Source: Dictyostelium discoideum (lineage: Eukaryota). From it: a stretch of DNA of 64,000 nucleotides. The position numbers were made by a program, and so were the translations under genes. This document shows positions 1,771 to 59,114 of the stretch, one piece after another (the first letter of the stretch is position 1; every line of letters starts with the position of its first letter). Under the pieces are notes generated by a model that made no database searches, was not told the DNA's origin, and saw only the letters and a list, made by a program, of their open reading frames with translations. The stretch lies in the NCBI GenBank assembly GCA_000004695.1, contig CM000155.2, positions 3,200,001-3,264,000 of the forward strand, given 5' to 3'.

Positions 1771-3360
1771 ATGGCCGGTGATTTAACTCCTTCATTATTT
1801 TTGAAATATGGTTTTGGTGGTGCTTTGGTATGTTTAATATATTATTAAAAAAAAAACACAAAAAAAAAAAAAAAAACACAAAAAAAAAATGTTGAAAATC
1901 TTACACCACACACAAAATGATCGTTTTTTTTTTTTTAAATTAAATTTTATTTCATATAATTAATCAAAAATTATTTAAAACAAAAAAAAAAAAAAAAAAA
2001 AAAAATATCATTTATTTCTTTGAATAAATTAATTTAATTTAAATAATAATAATAATAATAATAAATAGAGTTGTTCAATTACTCACAGTCTTGTAGTCCC
2101 ACTTGATGTCGTTAAGACTCTCCTCCAAACCAACCCAGGTAATTATTAATATAATTGACAATCACAATCACAATCAATATATATTATATAATAAGAATTC
2201 ATAATATTAATAAATAAAAAAAAAAAAAAAAAAAAAAAATAATTAAAAATAAAGGTAAATACACTGGTATGATGAACGGTTTCAGCACCGTCATTAAGGA
2301 ACAAGGTCCATCTGGTTTATTACAAGGTTTAGGACCAACTGCTGTTGGTTATGCCTTACAAGGTTTCTTAAAATTCGGTTTCTATGAAGTCTTCAAAAAG
2401 ACCTACGCTGATGCTGTTGGTGAAAAAGCCGATCAATTCAGAATCCCAATTTGGTTAGCTGCCTCAGCCACTGCTGAAGTTATTGCTGATATTGCTTTAT
2501 GCCCAAATGAAGCCGTTCGTATTCGTTTAGTTGCTGAACCAACTTTCGCTAAATCACCAGTTGAAGCTTTCGGTAAAATCTTCAAACAAGAAGGTGTCCT
2601 CGGTTTCTACAAAGGTCTCCCACCAATTTTATTAAAAGTAAGTAGTTTTGTATTTAATTTATCAATAAATAAATAAATATACATATACTAATATACACTT
2701 TTTATTTTTATTATTATTATTTTTATTATTATTATTATTTAAATTGGTAATTACAGCAAGGTATGTGAAATTTTTAAAAGATAAATTGTAATTTTTTATA
2801 AATATATATGTAGGTATTTTACTAACAACAACAATTATCCCATTTTATCAATTCAAATTTGAACAAATTTAAAATTATAAATAGTCCCATACACTATGGC
2901 TAAAGTAAGTTGGATAAAATATAATATTAGAATATTTAAAATAATAGTAATCATATTAATATTAATAATAATAATAATATTTTTAAAATTATTTTAGTTC
3001 GCTGTTTTCGAATTTACTGCTGAAAACGTTTACAAAGGTTTAGCCGCCAGTGGTAAACCAAAGGAATCATTAACTGATGGTCAAAAACTCTCTGTTTCAT
3101 TAGGTTCAGGTATTGTTGCAGGTATTGTTGCTGCTATTGTCTCTCAACCAGCTGATACCATTTTATCAAAGATCAATCAAGAAAAGACTGATGGTGGTGT
3201 TGTTAAAGCAATCGGTAACATCATGAGACGTTTAGGTGTTCGTGGTTTATTCTTAGGTCTCCCAACCAGATGTTTCATGGTTGGTACTCTTACTGCCGGT
3301 CAATTCTTCATTTATGATGGTATTAAACAAATGTTAGGTCTCACCCCAGCAAAGAAATAA
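1771..3360 (+). CDS. Mitochondrial phosphate carrier (SLC25A3/Mir1-like mitochondrial carrier family), 6 exons including a 4-nt micro-exon
   Basis: Exons approx 1771..1827, 2069..2138, 2255..2637, 2757..2760, 2885..2904, 2998..3360, with GTATGT/GTAATT/GTAAGT donors and AG acceptors. Spliced product: MAGDLTPSLFLKYGFGGAL|SCSITHSLVVPLDVVKTLLQTNPG|KYTGMMNGFSTVIKEQGPSGLLQGLGPTAVGYALQGFLKFGFYEVFK...GFYKGLPPILLK|Q|VPYTMAK|FAVFEFTAENVYKGL...IYDGIKQMLGLTPAKK*. The KQVPYTMAKF segment matches the phosphate-carrier consensus RQIPYTMMKF. Three carrier repeats are present. Confidence 0.8.
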
Positions 3361-3790
3361 ACAATTTTTAAAAAATAAATAATTATTTCCTTTTTTCAGT
3401 ATTAATAATAATAATAATATAATAATAATAATAATAATAATTTATTTGTTTTCTTTTTTTTTTTTTTTTTTTTAATTGTATATTAATTCTAAGTTTTAAT
3501 AGATATATTAGTTTTAATATATCTCCAATAATTACTCCAACTATCGATAAATCCAATTAAAAAAAAAAAAAAAACAAAGATGATACTCCCAACAATCCAT
3601 TTTGTATTATTTTATTATTGGAAATTGATTGATTTTATTTGGTGATGTAAAAATAATTTGAAGTACAATACCTGATAATAATGGTTCATCTGATTCTTCT
3701 TTAATTATTTGTCCTGTGAATGTTAAACATTATTTATTATAGACAAAGAGGTTTTCTGCATTAACAGTAACTGGAATTAGAACGATAGGA

Positions 3791-3866
3791 GTTATCACAA
3801 CAACGAAAGATTTTTACACTAACTTAGATCTAAGTTAGTGTAAAAATCGTTCGTTGTTGTGATAAC
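3791..3866. repeat. 76-bp near-perfect palindrome (38-bp arms, 1 mismatch, centred on AGATCT), followed by a GC-richer tail to about 4030 with CCAATGG/CAGTGGCAA motifs
   Basis: gttatcacaacaacgaaagatttttacactaacttaga|tctaagttagtgtaaaaatcgttcgttgttgtgataac, read directly from the sequence. The local composition is far less AT-rich than the flanks. Confidence 0.85.
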
Positions 3867-4160
3867 CCGATTCACTAGCATGGTTCCAATGGTAGTACTA
3901 GCATGGGTTCAGTGGCAATAACTTGGATCCAATGGCAACTCAAACAAGAATCCCATAACAGCACTAACTTTAATATAATGGCAGCACTGACTAACTCGGA
4001 TCTAAATAGGGTAATACCACTGCTATAAAAGACTAATTAAGTTTATTCAAATGGTTTAATCAAATTTTTTACATTAAATTTTTCTTTTGTTTAATCCATA
4101 TGCTTAGTTTAATTGACTTCCTTCCAAAAAAAAAAAAATAGAATAAACATTCCACCATAT

Positions 4161-6066
4161 TTACCGACCATATTGTAATAGGTCACAGAGGTAGCTAAAT
4201 TCCAACCATAGGAAGATGTGAAAACTTCTTGTTTTGAAACCGGTTAAAGCTTTTGGAGGATGAGAGTTACAGTTATCGATTTCTGCCATAATATAGGTTC
4301 CAGTACTATCAGTATAAGAGTAGTCATCACTTGAAACTGGTGCATAGTAACCAGCTGGTGTAAAGTAAATTTGATAATTAGTTGGTAATAACATTTGAAT
4401 TATTGCAGTTTGGTAAGCTAAAGAAGCTATGGTAGAAATTTTTTGAAAGTCTAATCCATTGATATTGAGTGAGGATGGATTATTGGTTGGTAAGAAACAT
4501 AATGCAAAGGTTTTACTCATCATACCCCAATCTTGTAAAATGGTATTTTTAATTCTTTGAGCATTTGCCATTTCATTTTCATAATTTTCATTTAAATGAT
4601 CATAGAGTTTACTTAATGTAACTTGATAGGTTGATGGGCCTGAATCATTACTTTCAGCATATAATTCACCAAATTGTACTGCTGACTCACTAATGTTTGC
4701 AATTATTGAACCACCAATTGGTATCTCTGAAATAATTGCATAAAAAACACTGGTAATTGCATCGGTGTAATCTCCATTAACAACTTGGTCAGATGACATA
4801 TCAACATTGATTAAATTTGCCAAGTTTGTTAAATTTGTACTACCTTGACTAAATAATTTACTATAAAAACCAGAATAGTTATCAAATACTAAACGGACAT
4901 TGATTGCGTAGGTGAGTTCATTTTTGATTTGATTTTGAACATATGAAAAATCTTCAGTTGAATGAATTGATGATGGACAAGTTGCATTGGTGACATTAAC
5001 ATAGAAAATTTCTAAATTAACATTAATACTTGTATAAAGTGATCTAATGTCATCAGTATAACCATTTGTTGCATCATCACTAAGGTATTGATATGATGCT
5101 AATAAATCACCACTTGTGTAAGCTGGAAATGGTTCTGGTACTTCACTAACAATTTGGTTTAATGAATAGGTTGGATTTGCAATCCATTGGAAATTAATAT
5201 CACTAGCACTACTTGGTTGAGCTAATACACAATTAACAGTTGAATCAACTCCAAGTTCACCAACGAATCCAATACATAAATTTGGATAATATTGATTGAA
5301 TATTTGATTATTTTCGTTGATACCCCATTGTTGCATTAGATCATTTGCTTTGTAAACATTGGTATTTAAATGATAGTTTGTTTTACTACCATCAATTGAT
5401 GGACCAATATCTAATACTAAATTACCATCCAAACGTGATAAAATGTGACCATCGTTTGTCATTTGCCAAATTTGACCTATTGATTTTGCTTGAACTTTAT
5501 TCATTACTACACTAGTATTATATGATGTACTATTATTTAATACACTTAGACCCCAATAATTATTATTGGAATCCAATTGTTTGCTTTGAAAGTAACCCCA
5601 ATTACCAGTTGGAATTGGTGCTCTTCTAAAAGTTGTCCATTTTTGAGTTGCGTTTCCATTTAAAGGTGCAACACAAATATTCAAACTGTCGATATCAAGG
5701 TATTTACCATTACCTTGGTTGAATTTTATTATTTGTAGTATCAATTGTCCAAATTTGAGTTTTTGAATTTGAATTAAGTTGTACTAATTCAACAAAATAA
5801 CCACCTGATGAAACATCTAAAACAAAATTACCACTGGATGTAAAGATATGACCATCATCAGAAAGAAGCCATGTTTGAATTGACTCAGATGCTACACATT
5901 GGAATGTATTACTGGTTGATAAATAATATGGTGTAATATTATTTGAACCTTTGAATAAACTTTTTGCTACGAATGAGTATTTTGGTTTTGAACTTGTACT
6001 TGTACTTTTTAATTGTTTTTCTTCACTTTGATTTGAAGATTTTGAAATATCTTCAATATTTATCAT
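4161..6066 (-). CDS. Ricin-B (beta-trefoil, QxW repeat) lectin-domain protein with a long C-terminal domain. The reading frame is interrupted near 5710-5745, so this may be a frameshifted gene or pseudogene
   Basis: Two overlapping minus-strand ORFs (5710..6066 and 4161..5744). Repeated QxW motifs ([37 protein letters not shown]) and DGHIxxxxGNxVLD repeats typical of ricin-B domains. The overall architecture resembles the Dictyostelium Cup (calcium up-regulated) lectin family; that link is recalled from memory, not verified. Confidence 0.6.
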
Positions 6067-7129
6067 TTTTTTATTTTTAATTTTTTTATTTTATTTATTT
6101 AAATTTTTTGTTTTAAAAGTTATTTAATTTATTTTTGAGAATGAAAAAAAAAAAAAAAAGTTTTAAAGTATTTATATTTTTTTTTTTTAAGTCTATTATT
6201 TTTATTTATTTTTTTTTTTAACCCATGGTTTAGATCTTTGTTCAAGTCAACACCAACACAGGTGTCAAAATGGAGTGTTATCTTTCACTCATTGCATTTT
6301 TTAGGGTTTGTGTTTTAATTGGTGAAAGTGTTAATCTTTAAAATAAAAAAAAAAAAAAAAGAAAAAAAAATTTAAAAAACTGATTATCGAAAAAAATAAA
6401 AATATCTTCAAAACACCAAAAAAAAAAAAAAAAAATATATAATTTATTTGATAATAGATTTAAAATAATAAATAATTAAAATAAAATTTTAATATATTTT
6501 AGTTGAAAATAATTAGAGTATCACAAAGATTTTTTTTTTTATTTTTTAAATATTGGTTCATTTGAAAAAGGATTAATACAAATTAAATTTTTGATGACTT
6601 TCTCTTAAATTTTTGAAAAAAAAAAAAAAAAAAAAAAAAAATTTATTTATAGTTTATTTATTATTTTTTTTTAAAAAAAATTAAATATAAATGATTTGCA
6701 ACACTTTTATATTAGATATAAACTTAAGTTTTTTATTATTATTATTTTTTTTTAACACTTTTCAATCCTTTTTTTTTTTAATTTCCTTTTTTTTTTTTTT
6801 TTTTTTTTTCCAAAATTCAAAAATTCAAACCCTAGGTATAATTATTTGTTATATAATTATTAAAAATATTTTTATAAAATATATATTTTTAATAATTATA
6901 TAACAAATAATTAGATTAATTTTAGTTCAAACGATGAATCAACAATACTTCAAAAAGAATTAAATTACCAGATTATTTTTGATTGAAATTTATAAATCCT
7001 TTTTTGAAGTGTTTAGTGTTTGGAATATAAACAATCAAATAAAGATTTATAATTTGAATATTCAATTATTTGTTAATTTAATTCTTTTTTTGAAATATTG
7101 TTGAGTCATCATTTCATCACCTCTACTAA

Positions 7130-7163
<34 letters not shown>

Positions 7164-7646
7164 AATAATATATAGTAATAGTTCAACCTCTATCAGCTAC
7201 TAAGGTAATCTTTTCGATTCATCTCAACCAACAACACAATCAATCATCCAAACGTCTTCTTCACTGATAAACTTTGTGTACCTGGTTTATGATTAGGCCA
7301 AACTCAACAACTCACTTCAAATAATCAATAATATTGATACTGGTGCTAACATGATTCATTAGTAGAATGCAATGTTGTGGGTTTCAATGTTCATCATGGC
7401 AGTGGAACTTTACAAACCCATATTCATTTAAATCATTTTTAAAAAAAATATAAAAAATAAATAATAAATAATAACTCACCTATTTACTACTAGTTTATTA
7501 TTGAGAAAAAATATAAAAAAAGGAAATTATATTATAATTACAAATAATTACGATAAATATTTAAATACTAAAAATAATTTTTGATTAAAAATAAAAAAAA
7601 AAAAAAAAAAACAAAAGGTAATTTCGATTTTATTGGACATATCAGT

Positions 7647-8091
7647 GGATAATTGAATTAATTATAATTAACTCAGAATATTTTAAAAAAGATCGAGTTA
7701 TCCCGGAATTTTTTTTTTTATTTTCTTTATTTCTCTATTCCGTTAAGACCTATCGTAGAATTAAATTTGGTTGTATTTATAGAGAAATAAAGAAAATATA
7801 AAAAAAAATGAACTTCGAAAAAAAAAAAGGAACTTCAAAAAAAAAAAACTACATATAAAAAATAAATGTATTTGAGACCCGGTATTTTTGATTTTTTTTT
7901 GTCAATCATACTATTTATTTTATTTATTTATTTATTATATTTTTTATTTTAATTGTGAATAAATGAAAAAAATTAAAAAAAAAAAAATAATATGGCCAAT
8001 GAAAAATTTTTCCCGAAAAAATTGATCTTTTCCGGGATAACTCGATCTTTTTCAAAATAACTTTTTTTGTTCAGAATTAATTCAATTATTC
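7647..8091. mobile_element. ~445-bp foldback/MITE-like element bounded by ~60-bp terminal inverted repeats with internal subterminal hairpins
   Basis: Left end ggataattgaattaatt...gatcgagttatcccgg (7647..7706) and right end ccgggataactcgatc...aattaattcaattattc (8032..8091) are reverse complements: a 16-bp block and a 17-bp block are perfect. Internal hairpin ttttctttatttctctat/atagagaaataaagaaaa (7724..7800). No ORF inside. Confidence 0.5.
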
Positions 8092-8861
8092 ACAGAAAGG
8101 TCCTTTACCAATAATTTTTATTCTTTTTATTTAAATATTTTAATGGTGGATGTTGTGGCTCAAATACAAATATAATTAAACTTGACATCAAAATTAGTCG
8201 TCTTCATCATCATATATGTTGTTAATTTACTCAAATCAAGAAATAAAATAATTATTTTTTATTATTTTTATTTTAAAGATATTAATCAATATTTAATTTC
8301 TTTTTTTATTTGGGTTTTTTTTTTACTTTTTATTTTATTTTATTTATTTTTTAAAGATCTAATTTTTTTTTTTTTTTTTTTTTTCGTTAACGAATAATCA
8401 AAAAAAAAAAAAAAATTAATTTATTATAAAATAAAAATAAAAAAATTAAAAAAATATAAATTTCCATCATTAAAAAACAAAATCTGTGTTTAAATTAATT
8501 TTAAAAATTTTATTTTTTTTTTTAATAAAATTAAATAACTATAAATATAAAATTTTTAATTCAAATTTTCACAAAAAAAAAAAAAAATAATAAATAAATA
8601 TATAATAATCAAATAAATAAAATGACAGAAGTAAGGAAATATCTTGTTAGAAAGGTACCTACAAACAAATCTATTCAGACAAGACAAATGCCAGATAGTG
8701 ATTACAGTTCTCCAGCATTTTATTTATCAGAGGGTTACCCATGTAAAGAGTGGCTTAGAGATAGATTCTACACAGTATTAGTTATAGAATTAAGAGGATT
8801 GAATTATCAAAGAACTCATTTGTCAAAATTCGCAAAAGAGTGTTTGTTAACAAGCAATCAA

Positions 8862-9118
8862 CGATGCATATGAACTACACCCAATCCCAGCATTAGCACC
8901 ATTCATACAGAACTGCATCTGGTTCAGCTCTGAGTTCTATGAAGTTTAATGGGTAAAGACTATCTTCAGTAACTAATTTAACGACGTGAAGTTTTAAAAA
9001 ATTTGGACGATGTATACGAACTACACCCAATCATGTCATTAAATTAATTACTTAAGAGAGTCTTTACCCATTTAACTTCATTAAACTCAGAGCTGAACCA
9101 GATGCAGCACCAGCTGTA
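8862..9118. repeat. Compound repeat: a 25-bp direct repeat (8862..8886 and 9019..9043), each followed by the same ~50-bp segment in opposite orientation (8911..8961 vs 9070..9118)
   Basis: cgatgcatatgaactacacccaatc / cgatgtatacgaactacacccaatc. gaactgcatctggttcagctctgag...tttaatgggtaaagact versus its reverse complement agtctttacccatttaac...ctcagagctgaaccagatgcag. The surrounding 8620..9213 is GC-richer than normal for this genome. Confidence 0.7.
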
Positions 9119-9378
9119 GAACCAGCTGAAGATGACGGTGGTGCCATCAACGAAGCAGATGACTTTAATGAAGATGATGGTGCCAAAGACATCATCGAAC
9201 AACTTCACAATTAAATACAATAAATAAAAAGTTTGTCTTCAAGAAATTAAATTTTTAAATTTTTAATTCTTTATTTTTGTTTTTTTTTTTTTTTAAAAAA
9301 TTAAATCATTTAAAATTAAAAGAAAAAAAAAATTGATTATTAAACAATTATATGTTTGTTTTTTATTTTTTATTTTTT

Positions 9379-10400
9379 TTATTTTACATTATTAACTAAA
9401 GAACCTAATTCTTCAATTTCACATTTGATAACATCACCACTCTTTAAAAAGATTGGATTAGGTTTTCTAATGAAACCAACACCTGAAGGGGTACCAGTGA
9501 AAATGATATCACCAGGATTTAAAGTGAATAATTTTGAAAGATAAGAAACTACAGTTTGAATATTGAAAATGAATTCTTTGGTTGTAGAATTTTGAACTAC
9601 TTGACCATTGAGAGTACATTTGATTGAGAGATTATTCGGGTCGAAATAAGTATCATCAGATAATGCAGCGACTTCAGGATTGATAACTATTGATGGACCA
9701 ATTGGGGCGAATGTATCAAAAGTCTTACCAAGTAACCATTGTGAGTTATTCTTACGTAGTTGCCAATCTCTAGCGGATACATCATTACCAACGGTATAGC
9801 CTGCAACATATTGTAATGCATCAGATTCTGATACGTTCTTTGCTTGTTTACCAATCACCACCACTAATTCAACCTCATAGTCTACTTCATCACTTTCGAC
9901 TGGTTTAATGATTGAGTCGTTTGGACCACAAATTGCATTGTCAAACTTTGAGAATACAATTGGTTCTTTCGGAATTGCCATCTTTGCTTCATTTGCATGC
10001 TCTTTATAATTTAAACCAATACAAATAATCTTACCTGGTTCAATTGGTGCTTTAATTTTACAATTTTCAATTGGTATTCTTCTATTATTAATATTATTAA
10101 TTACCTAAATAATAAAAATAATAATAATAATTATAAATGTTAATAAAATAAAATAAAAAATAAAAAAAAAAAAAGAAAAGAATTAATAATTTTGACATAG
10201 GTTCATACATTTATAACTTTTGACCATTTATCAGTTGAATTTAAAGATAAAAATGAACGCATATCATTTGGTATGCTTTTATCAGCTGAACATAAATCTA
10301 TAATACTATTTTCTAATAATGCACCTAACCTTTTACTTTGTTCACCAACATTTGGTATATAAGTGACTAATTTAATTAATCCAAAATTTGCTCTATTCAT
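9379..10400 (-). CDS. Fumarylacetoacetate hydrolase (FAH) domain protein, FAHD1/2-like, 2 exons
   Basis: Exons approx 10400..10209 and 10104..9379 (donor GTATGA, acceptor TTTAG). Product MNRANFGLIKLVTYIPNVGEQSKRLG...KWSKVIN|VINNINNRRIPIENCKIKAPIEPGKIICIGLNYKEHANEAKMAIPKEPIVFSKF...GTPSGVGFIRKPNPIFLKSGDVIKCEIEELG. The KIICIGLNYKEHA segment matches the FAHD consensus KIVCVGRNYADHA. Confidence 0.8.
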
Positions 10401-10634
10401 TTTTATATGTTATTACAATTAAATATATATATATATATATAAAATGATTTTTATGTTTTATTTAAAGTTGGAATAAATATGTTTTTGCAAAAAAAAAAAA
10501 AATAAAAATAAAAATTAAAAAATAATTGATATTTGAGAATAGGTTTGTGTGTGAAAGTGTGTGTGAAAGTGTGGTGTTTTTACTTTTTTTTTTTTTTTTT
10601 TTGGTTTATCTAAACAATATTAAATGTAACTGAA

Positions 10635-11809: not shown

Positions 11810-12687
11810 TTAATTATCTATTATATTATTATCATAATAATAGTTATTATTCCTATTTAATAATAATTCCCTTTTTTCTTCTTCATCATCTAAATAATAT
11901 TGATTAATAAGTAAATAGTCAAATGATGACTTTCTATTTCTTCTTTTTAAAATTACAACTGTTAATAATAAAGCAACACAAATGATACCAATGGCACTAA
12001 TAGTCACAGCTAATATAGTGTTTTTGTAACTCTTTTTACCACTACCTCCACCATTACCATTACCATTATCATTACTATTATTTGGAGCATCAGGATCTGG
12101 ACAAATATCACTATTTGTTAAAGTTACATTTTTATCAGTTGATATTGAGAATACACAACCATCACAATCAAAACACCATTCTAATTTATTATTTTTATTT
12201 TTACTATTATCACTACTACCAATTGAATTATTATCACCACTACCACCACCACTACTACTACTATTTGAATTACTATCATCATCATCACTACTATTTGTAT
12301 TATTTGATTTATTCCAACCAATTTTATCATTTGATGGTGAATCAATATAAACAGTTGAGTATTCACCACCTATTGGATTATCTGATTCAATTTTACTATC
12401 AATTAATGTTAAATTACTATTAACAATATGAATTAAATTTTGATTATTAAAATTTGCTTTTGAAATTATTCCACTATTATTATTATTACTATTACTATTG
12501 ATATTATTTATAATATTATTATTATTTAAAATTAAATTTATATTTTTAATATTTATAATTGAATAATTAAAATTTATATTATATGGCATTATATTAATGA
12601 ATTGATTAGAATAAAATAAGACATTTGCTTTTTCAGTTTTATTTTCACAATCTAATATAATGAAACCATTTATATTTTCATTGAAAC

Positions 12688-12760
<73 letters not shown>

Positions 12761-13777
12761 ATCACTATTATTGAGTTGTTGTAATCTTTGTTCTAATAAT
12801 TCAAGTTGTGGTTGTGGTTGTGGTAATATTAAATTATTATTGAAATTACTGAATTCGATTAACATATTTTCATTACTAAAATCAATTAGGTCATTATTAT
12901 TATTAATATGGTTAATAAAACTACCATTACTATTTGAATGATTATAATTACTTATTATGGTTGGTGAATTTATTAATGTAATGAATGAGAAATTATTAGT
13001 GGTAATATTATTAGTTGAACAATTTGAAATTGTAAGTGAGGATTGATTTAAATGGAAAAATGTATTATTCATTGATAAATTTATAAATGTACTTGTTTTC
13101 ACTGAAATTGAAGTTTGTTTTAATTTTATTGGCATTATTAAATTATTTAATTTAGTTAAATAATTAAAATTTTCAAATTTACAATTATTTAAATTTATTG
13201 AATTTAGTGTTTTATTAATTGAATTATTATCATTACTATCATTATTTGATATTATTGGGTAAGATATTAAAATTTCATTTGAATGATTATTAAAATTGGT
13301 ATTTATAAAATCTATATTATTATTTATAGTTTCCATATATAATATTGGAGTTATCCAATTATTAAAATTAATATTATTTATAGTTATATTTAGTGAAATT
13401 GATTTAGTGGTTGTTGAATTATTGGAATTATCATTTATTAAATTTAAAAATGGTTGTTTTTTACTTTGAATTATTGTAGTACCAAATGTTTCATTACCAT
13501 TTATAGTAATTATATTATTATTATTATTATTATTATTTTGAATATAGTAATTATTTAATAATTCTTCAATATGGTAATCTTTACATTCTTTATTTTTTAA
13601 ATTTAATATAATTTCACCACTATAATCGGAACCACTATTACTATTACTAGAAGAGGAAGAAGGATTTATTCCTCCATTAATTATATCCCTACAATCAATA
13701 TCGAATGTAATTGATGATATAATAATATTTATAAAATTAATAACTATAAAAATAATTATTATTATTTTTGATAACAT
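11810..13777 (-). CDS. Asn-rich type I membrane glycoprotein: N-terminal signal peptide, many NxS/T sites, one C-terminal TM helix, short basic tail. Function unknown
   Basis: 655-aa ORF. The N-terminus MLSKIIIIIFIVINFINIIISS is hydrophobic. The C-terminus has ILAVTISAIGIICVALLLTVVIL followed by KRRNRKS. Contains an (AAT)n-encoded poly-N run near 12690..12760. Confidence 0.6.
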
Positions 13778-15376: not shown

Positions 15377-19117
<3,741 letters not shown>

Positions 19118-33470: not shown

Positions 33471-33680
33471 TTTTTCTATGCACAAAATTACCATATTAAT
33501 TTCGGCAGCCATATTAATTTCAGCCTAAAATAGTTTATCTGTTCTTGACAAAATTAATATGGCTGCTGAAATTAATATGGTAATTTTGGGCATAGAAAAA
33601 TAAAAAAAACTATCAGACATAAGTCCCATGCCAAAATTATCATATTAATTTCAGCAGCCATATTAATTTTGGCATGGGAC
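33471..33680. repeat. Two tandem, sequence-related hairpins: IR 33471..33520 / 33551..33600 (about 50-bp arms, 2 mismatches) and IR 33623..33639 / 33664..33680. The loop of the second hairpin carries the 28-nt core motif of the first hairpin's arm
   Basis: caaaattaccatattaatttcggcagccatattaattt versus aaattaatatggctgctgaaattaatatggtaattttg. gtcccatgccaaaatta...tcatattaatttcagcagccatattaat...taattttggcatgggac. Confidence 0.8.
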
Positions 33681-34621
33681 ATATATTAAATATGATTTTT
33701 TTTTAGATCATATAAAATAAAAAAAAGTATATAAAAAAAAAAAAAAAAAAAAAAAAAAACTTTTTGTTTAAACACTAAATGATCATTAGTTTTTTAAATA
33801 TTTATTCTATTAAATAATAAACTGGTTATATACTATCAAATTTTTTTTTTTTAACGATACATAAATAATAAATAACTATAATATCAAATAAAAAAAATTT
33901 AATGATGCATTGGGTAATATCGAAAAAAATTTAAACAAAGATGCATTGAATTGGGAAGAAAAATTAACTATTAGTGATTCAGATAGTAGTGACAGTGATC
34001 CAGATACACCAATACAGGGACTTATACCAGAAAATTAACCAAAAACCACAAAAACAGTTAAACCAGTTGCAAATTAATAAACAAATAAATAAAAAAAAAA
34101 TAAATAAATAAATAAATAAAATAAAAAAAAAAAAAAAAATAAAAAAAATACAAATAACATACTAATAAATATTATTTAACGAAGTTACTATCTCTTCCAC
34201 AAAATATAAACGTAGATTTGAAAATTTCAATGAAAATGATGGTTGCTTAAAAGAGTTAATAGAAAAAGAAATTATAATTCAAAAAAATAGAAAGATTAAT
34301 TTATTGGATATTGAATTCAAACAGTATTTTAAAATACCCTGATAAATAATTAGGATACATAAATACATTTAAGCCTAAGGAAATAAATAGAAGGTAGTTT
34401 GGTCAGTGGATGAAATAATAGAACAAGAAATTAAAAATATTATGACCAATTATAATAAAAAATGATTTTTAAATAAAAAATTAAAATAAACTAACTATTT
34501 AAAGTTTGTATTTTTATTTGTAGCTTTTTTTTGAATTGGATAACGCAATTATTAGTTGCTTCTCCTTGAGATGCTAGATCTTATTTTATTTGTAGTTTTT
34601 TACAGATAAAAGAGGGGTTAG

Positions 34622-34982: not shown

Positions 34983-35026
34983 TTTGTAGCCAAATTGATG
35001 TAAATTTTTAAAATTTCATCAAAAAT

Positions 35027-35099
35027 GCCTGGATGGCTCAGTAGGCAGAGCGAGCGGCTGTTAACCGCTAGGTCCATGGTTCGATCCCATGTCTAGGCG
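35027..35099 (+). tRNA. tRNA-Asn (anticodon GUU)
   Basis: Cloverleaf folded by hand. Acceptor stem GCCTGGA/TCTAGGC (one G-U pair). D-stem GCTC/GAGC. Anticodon stem AGCGG/CCGCT with loop CTGTTAA, giving GTT at positions 34-36. T-stem CATGG/CCATG with loop TTCGATC. Discriminator G. Total 73 nt. Confidence 0.9.
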
Positions 35100-35130
35100 A
35101 TACTTTTCTATGAGAATAGAATTAGATCGC

Positions 35131-36527: not shown

Positions 36528-36696
36528 ATATTCAAACTTTTTAATATTTGTTCAACTGATGAAGATAAACTTCTTTGTTAACTACATCAGTAGAACAAAT
36601 ATTAAAAAGTTTGAATATTATTTAATTTATTTTAAATTAATATTCAAACTTTTTAATATTTGTTCAACTGATGTAGTTAACAAAGAAGATAAAATT
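36528..36696. repeat. ~170-bp compound palindrome in the TPS/P450 bidirectional promoter. Arrangement: A1(36528..36561) - B(36562..36584) - A1 inverted (36585..36618) - spacer - A2 direct (36640..36673) - B inverted (36674..36696)
   Basis: A = atattcaaactttttaatatttgttcaactgatg. B = aagataaacttctttgttaacta. The inverted copies have 1-2 mismatches. Lies between the TPS ATG (36304, minus) and the P450 ATG (36989, plus). Confidence 0.85.
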
Positions 36697-58958: not shown

Positions 58959-59049
58959 TNNNNNNNNNNNNNNNNNNNNNNNNNNNNNNNNNNNNNNNNN
59001 NNNNNNNNNNNNNNNNNNNNNNNNNNNNNNNNNNNNNNNNNNNNNNNNN
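58959..59049. other. Run of 91 N: assembly gap immediately upstream of the 59115 gene
   Basis: Literal n characters. Flanked by poly(A)/poly(T). Confidence 0.99.
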
Positions 59050-59114
59050 NNNNNNNNNNTTTTTTTTTTTTTTTTTTTTTTTGTGACTACTTCGCACAAA
59101 CACAACCACAAAAA

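Follow-up and report, generated by a model that had tools for sequence, protein, structure and literature searches.

A MITE family is defined by numerous copies dispersed through a genome, together with a characteristic target-site duplication, and foldback elements (Drosophila FB, Galileo-type) have very long arms of tandem subrepeats which make up most of the element. Within Dictyostelium discoideum the elements of the MITE kind are the short derivatives of DDT and of thug; DDT-S, one of the former, was reportedly described by Glockner et al. in 2001. Three families, Tdd, DDT and thug, make up the DNA transposons of D. discoideum, and according to a 2017 review citing Winckler et al. 2011 the transposases of this organism are without significant similarity to known transposases (PMC5633606). 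The termini of Ginger2/Tdd elements are TGTNR, with Tdd-4 and Tdd-5 making 5-bp duplications and having inverted ends of 260-297 bp (PMC2836005).

The locus described here lies within a stretch of 64,000 nucleotides of D. discoideum, probably of chromosome 6 (assembly GCA_000004695.1, contig CM000155.2, positions 3,200,001 to 3,264,000 of the forward strand), the whole of which is referred to as the window. The element found at this locus is most likely, with a probability of roughly 60%, a non-autonomous cut-and-paste DNA transposon, MITE-like in kind, whose insertion site is AT-rich intergenic DNA within a strain-variable gene island. It resembles MITEs in being under 800 bp, non-coding and AT-rich, with inverted ends, an intergenic position near genes, a hairpin fold and an insertion polymorphism. 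It differs from them in that one locus is seen in the ~0.25 Mb covered and that no clear target-site duplication flanks it, and its 74-nt arms are long for the classic Stowaway- or Tourist-type.

Architecture of the element

The initial annotation placed the element at 7647-8091 (~445 bp), with inverted ends of ~60 bp and perfect blocks of 16 and 17 bp. Bounded by the ends of the repeat and by the limits of the segment that is missing from the wild isolate L006, the element proves to be longer, as do its arms, and the perfect blocks are of 23 and 15 nt. The features are as follows:

7635-8103 (no strand): whole element, 469 bp, termini GGAC...GTCC
7635-7708 (+): left terminal inverted repeat, 74 nt
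8030-8103 (-): right terminal inverted repeat, 74 nt, 80% complementary to the left arm
7649-7663 (+): outer perfect block ATAATTGAATTAATT, 15 nt, partner at 8075-8089 (-)
7686-7708 (+): inner perfect block AAAAAGATCGAGTTATCCCGGAA, 23 nt, partner at 8030-8052 (-), a candidate transposase-binding box
7708-7809 (no strand): internal hairpin abutting the left arm, stems 7708-7738/7779-7809 (31 nt, 97%) with a 40-nt loop
7800-7848 (+): 20-bp A-rich tandem unit AAAAAAAAAGGAACTTCAAA, 2.5 copies, from the tandem-repeat search (TRF)
8008-8051 (+): 20-bp unit, 2.2 copies (TRF), a degenerate second core copy (TTCCCGAAAAAATTGATC) beside the right-arm core

An inverted-repeat search pairs 7635-7708 with 8030-8103 across a spacing of 321 nt, and a gapped alignment of the two arms has 61 identical columns out of 75. 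Conservation along the arms is uneven, with the outermost 14 nt matching at 10 positions (GGACATATCAGTGG vs GGACCTTTCTGTGA), followed by the perfect 15-mer, a diverged spacer of ~15 nt over which the arms match poorly, and the inner, GC-containing block of 23 nt. Random placement of the mismatches gave two perfect runs as long as these (23 and 15 nt) in 0.2% of trials (P = 0.002), and mismatches clustered so as to leave two perfect blocks are the pattern expected of protein-binding sites. A transposase encoded elsewhere would bind these conserved blocks and pair the ends of the element, the paired element would then be excised and re-inserted, and the degenerate core copy beside the right arm may provide an extra subterminal binding site.

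The inverted-repeat architecture that was first proposed is real and above chance, as judged by shuffles, the count of the core 16-mer and a complexity-filtered scan. The core 16-mer GATCGAGTTATCCCGG occurs in the 64 kb only at 7691-7706 (+) and 8032-8047 (-), with 0.03 matches expected from shuffles, and the inverted-alignment score is 76 vs a mean of 29.1 for dinucleotide shuffles (sd 4.5, maximum 45). Similar scores are reached in other AT-rich windows, all of them via A-runs and T-runs, ATT-type simple repeats or an N run, and the raw score was dropped as stand-alone evidence because A-run/T-run pairs score equally high. As simple AT-rich pairs reach the same raw score, the whole window was scanned with a complexity filter that admits inverted 14-mers only if they have 4 or more G/C and a high diversity of 3-mers; this returned four spaced inverted-repeat loci, of which the element is one.

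The interior of the element had been credited with several nested subterminal hairpins, of which one strong example, abutting the left arm, is found. The claim that the element has no coding capacity is borne out, its longest stop-to-stop frame being 59 codons and none of its frames having a Pfam match at E<=1. Open reading frames that run through the arms have no relatives in a collection of 5.8 billion proteins, which is weak evidence as such frames are rarely called as genes. The GC content is 0.15-0.215, compared with 0.055-0.135 in the adjoining intergenic DNA, and this higher GC content, together with the lack of coding capacity and of a known RNA family, is counted in favour of the MITE-like reading.

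A foldback element had been offered as the alternative to a transposon of this kind, and the inverted ends and strong snap-back potential are indeed shared with foldback elements. The arms, however, are 2 x 74 of 469 bp, each 16% of the length, and are not built of tandem subrepeats, the TRF search finding no tandem array inside them except the 2.2-copy 20-bp unit at the inner right edge, while the interior is unrelated and has a hairpin of its own; the foldback reading therefore fails.

The locus among Dictyostelium isolates

Region 7000-8800, in which the element lies, is AT-rich intergenic DNA that is typical of Dictyostelium. The surrounding features are:

4161-6066 (-): Ricin-B lectin gene
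7100-7420: coding-like stretch without a gene annotation in the near-identical D. discoideum assembly L003, GC 0.33-0.35, with a run of (CAA)n, all frames translated being interrupted by stops
7590-7634 (no strand): left flank, homologous to L006 11555-11511, the homology ending one base before GGAC
8104-8339 (no strand): right flank, of which 8115-8339 is homologous to L006 11491-11264
~8140-8230: hssA/2C/7E-like Gly/Cys-rich gene fragment, just right of the element and inside the right flank
8622-9214 (+): small gene, 127 aa in the L003 annotation
9379-10400 (-): FAH gene

The stretch at 7100-7420 is probably the remnant of a decayed gene. The element was originally placed between the lectin and FAH genes, which is true only in the wider sense, as the small gene at 8622-9214 (+) separates it from FAH. 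The FAH-domain reading frame (9379-9981, -) is 99% identical to a 'Dictyostelium cf. discoideum' protein, and the 90% cluster of the FAH protein includes the D. discoideum AX4 protein XP_629076.1. Members of this cluster were used to take the syntenic locus from six other Dictyostelium genomes; P0129 was set aside, its contigs proving unrelated and of 27% GC. In D. firmibasis, D. citrinum and D. dimigraforme the FAH gene directly adjoins a mitochondrial-carrier gene, and within the D. discoideum clade the interval between the two holds different genes in each genome, with the lectin in the window and L003, B-box/FNIP in L005 and others in L001 and L006. The interval, at ~3500-9300 of the window, amounts to a strain-variable island across the loci compared (L001, L003, L005-L008 and L027).

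The hssA-like fragment beside the element has a counterpart at L006 11360-11470. At L001 11900-12140 a longer version has 4 stops in the translated frame and is turned the other way with respect to FAH, so that a local inversion between isolates is implied.

L003, a 3.6-Mb contig of the D. discoideum assembly GCA_054883475.1, is 99.9% identical to the window over 2500-10500 and carries the element at 12297-12765, where a comparison over 669 bp shows 0 differences. The recent Dictyostelium assemblies seem to derive from a study that also sequenced the lab strain AX2-214 (PMC12745789), and L003 is probably AX2-214 or a close relative of it rather than an independent natural isolate.

It is the wild isolate L006 (D. 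discoideum GCA_054859385.1) that provides the strongest evidence for mobility of the element, through a presence/absence polymorphism with its breakpoints at the repeat tips. Such a polymorphism among strains had been suggested as a check, and it is found, the element being present in the window and L003 and exactly absent from L006 with the flanks kept. The comparison was made by anchored local alignments, as global alignment was misled by the AT-rich sequence. In L006 both flanks are adjacent and the 469 bp are missing, with 19 nt separating the flank blocks, against 480 bp (7635-8114) in the window. Read in the orientation of the window, the junction is ...GGATGTTATT|ATTAATAATTTTTATT... in L006 vs ...CGATTTTATT[GGAC...GTCC]TTTACCAATAATTTTTATT... 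in the window, so that the arms end where homology to the empty site begins. The left-flank homology is short (45 nt, with 22 complex positions, 20 of them identical), and the two lineages are only ~85% identical at the locus. No part of the element was found in L006 or in any other fetched locus except L003. This exact absence supports a mobile, transposase-dependent (non-autonomous) element, with insertion and precise loss not separable because every other genome compared is without the whole segment.

The same breakpoints bear on whether the element might be a non-mobile local palindrome, created by inverted duplication or replication error, with the absence from L006 being an ordinary deletion or turnover of the island. 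The setting is one in which this could be envisaged, as the interval between FAH and the mitochondrial carrier is rearranged in every D. discoideum-clade genome examined and a second strong inverted repeat, 800 bp from the element, shows that palindromes do form in this neighbourhood; yet both arms and the interior are absent from L006 with breakpoints at both tips, which a random deletion would not produce. Furthermore an inverted duplication would leave one arm homologous to the empty site, and neither arm is. A palindrome of this sort is considered unlikely, even though it would account for the element being single-copy in the window and fetched loci and for the want of a clean target-site duplication.

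At the target site the flanks are ...TTTTATT and TTTACCAAT..., and the empty site in L006 is GTTATT-ATT-AATAAT. No clear target-site duplication is seen, the candidates being TT/TT, TTTATT/TTTACC (4/6) and, if the ends are shifted by two bases, TA.

A second copy, a partial copy or a related arm was sought with exact and mismatch patterns, with lax BLASTN and with nhmmer profiles built from the arms and from the element as a whole, and none was found in the window and the 27 fetched loci (~0.25 Mb in total). Matches to the 15-mer with 1-2 mismatches at 16882 and 40316 were rejected as copies, since the similarity does not extend. Exact look-ups of nearby reading frames of the window gave no records in other strains, and papers searched for the arm motifs yielded nothing relevant. 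The original proposal of a non-autonomous DNA transposon is upheld as regards the small size, the non-coding sequence, the complex inverted ends and the absence from L006, but not as regards copy number, there being no second copy in ~0.25 Mb.

Folding of the repeat and other hairpins of the window

A possible function as RNA has also to be considered for the inverted repeat. Reportedly, 17 earlier D. discoideum miRNAs were described by Avesson et al. 2012. The predicted RNA fold is very stable, at -125.5 kcal/mol for the + strand (z = -10.5) and -121.6 kcal/mol for the - strand (z = -10.3), and it could be that the element is, or has turned into, a hairpin-RNA gene, in which a transcript of 7635-8103 forms a long stem that is processed by the Dicer-like DrnB/DrnA into miRNA- or siRNA-like RNAs. 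That the fold is equally strong on both strands is a symmetry that any DNA inverted repeat gives, and an Rfam scan of 6500-9500 at E<=10 returned only sub-threshold noise, with no match for the element.

D. discoideum miRNA loci are mostly intergenic hairpins, with some derived from thug-S copies (PMC6161686; PMC4894637), and like such transposon-derived hairpins, which are also known from MITEs in plants, the element, as a probable inverted-repeat transposon, would be a Dicer substrate if transcribed. It differs in that its locus is missing from the published D. discoideum lists checked: Table S1 of PMC6161686 does not include it among the DrnB-dependent candidates, and the supplements of PMC11014262 do not contain its core sequence. 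Its stem is also interrupted by an interior of 321 nt, unlike the loci of ~100-180 nt in that Table S1. A hairpin-RNA gene is regarded as distinctly improbable. For a non-autonomous transposon, the folding of a read-through transcript into a long hairpin, which could feed the RNAi machinery, would be a side effect and not the reason for its existence.

Other inverted repeats of the window deserve mention in their own right. The second and stronger one, at 8905-9115, is inside the small gene 8622-9214 (+) and has 77-nt arms (8913-8989/9031-9107) that are 90% complementary, with a 41-nt loop and an RNA fold of -104.3 kcal/mol (z = -16.5). Its composition is coding-like, suggesting that part of the last exon was duplicated in inverted orientation, and a direct repeat lies beside it (8861-8895/9007-9041, 83%); it is a candidate small-RNA hairpin, and is absent from the miRNA lists checked. 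Complex inverted and direct repeats built on CCATATTAATTTCAGCAGCCATATTAATT form two adjacent intergenic hairpins at 33480-33690, a cluster that is unrelated in sequence to the element and lies ~1.4 kb upstream of a tRNA-Asn (35026-35100), which is the one tRNA found in a scan of the window and is far from the element. A further complex hairpin is present at 36530-36690, where ATTCAAACTTTTTAATATTTGTTCAACTGATG occurs twice in direct and once in inverted orientation and the stems include 36570-36591/36667-36688. The window also has a run of N, an assembly gap, at ~58960-59059.

Known transposon families and a bacterial insertion sequence

With Tdd-4 and Tdd-5 (Ginger2) the element has in common the host, its probable nature as a DNA transposon, long inverted ends and AT-rich targets (PMC2836005). 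Its ends are GGACA/GGACC, however, so the TGTNR termini are absent, and its 5-nt flanks differ (TTATT vs TTTAC, 2/5); membership of Tdd-4/5, which had been raised for comparison, accordingly fails. Any affinity to thug or DDT is a guess.

A likeness of a different kind is to a bacterial insertion sequence. The 20-mer AAGATCGAGTTATCCCGGAA that forms the core of the arms has one exact match in a metagenome collection, the contig L002, which is 70% GC and consists of a single insertion sequence. Its reading frame matches NF033559, the IS1634 family transposase (E = 4e-86), and AAGATCGAGTTATCCCGGAA is found in both of its terminal inverted repeats (1-60 and 1930-1980), one copy having one mismatch. 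The same insertion sequence occurs in L014, a Solirubrobacterales MAG (353-370 and 2270-2287). In prokaryote genomes totalling 596 Gb an 18-mer version matches 11 further loci, all of them single, with no inverted partner and none reaching the 20-mer. Three matches to the 16-mer in viral contigs were also seen and were taken as chance, these being lone copies in GC-rich contigs, two of which have the same flanks.

One explanation would be horizontal transfer, the element being a relic that is related to an IS1634-family insertion sequence of bacteria and has the 20-nt core as its transposase-binding site. It is in keeping with this that the sole exact 20-mer match falls in both terminal repeats of such an insertion sequence, that this type of insertion sequence recurs in the Solirubrobacterales MAG, and that the other 11 loci have neither the inverted partner nor the extension to 20 nt. 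But the identity goes no further than the 20-mer (21 nt for the right arm), and the orientation is opposite, with the GGAA side 13 nt from the tip in the insertion sequence and facing the interior ~50 nt from the tip in Dictyostelium. Beyond the identical 20-nt core within terminal inverted repeats there is no further similarity, the composition (18% vs 70% GC) and the domain of the host are different, and the element has no remnant of a transposase.

Moreover, one chance match to a 20-mer is near the expectation for a collection of that size. The shared core is probably a coincidence, and the chance of a true relationship between the element and the IS1634-family insertion sequence is a few per cent. 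It is very doubtful that the element represents an undescribed Dictyostelium transposon family whose putative binding box AAGATCGAGTTATCCCGGAA is shared with actinobacterial IS1634-family terminal repeats, and a relic left by horizontal transfer is slightly more doubtful still.

A non-autonomous MITE-like transposon is an ordinary kind of object and is unsurprising in a eukaryotic genome. Its value lies mainly in annotation, unless there is a real relationship behind the match to the bacterial insertion sequence. Were there one, the DNA-binding specificity of a transposase would have been carried across domains, for example by horizontal transfer to a bacterivorous amoeba. Should the element be a MITE, the DNA transposons of D. 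discoideum, a sparse and poorly understood set, would gain a small non-autonomous member. It is a concrete insertion polymorphism within a strain-variable gene island, and as a ready-made long hairpin with a lectin gene and a small acidic-tailed gene as neighbours it could seed the production of small RNAs.
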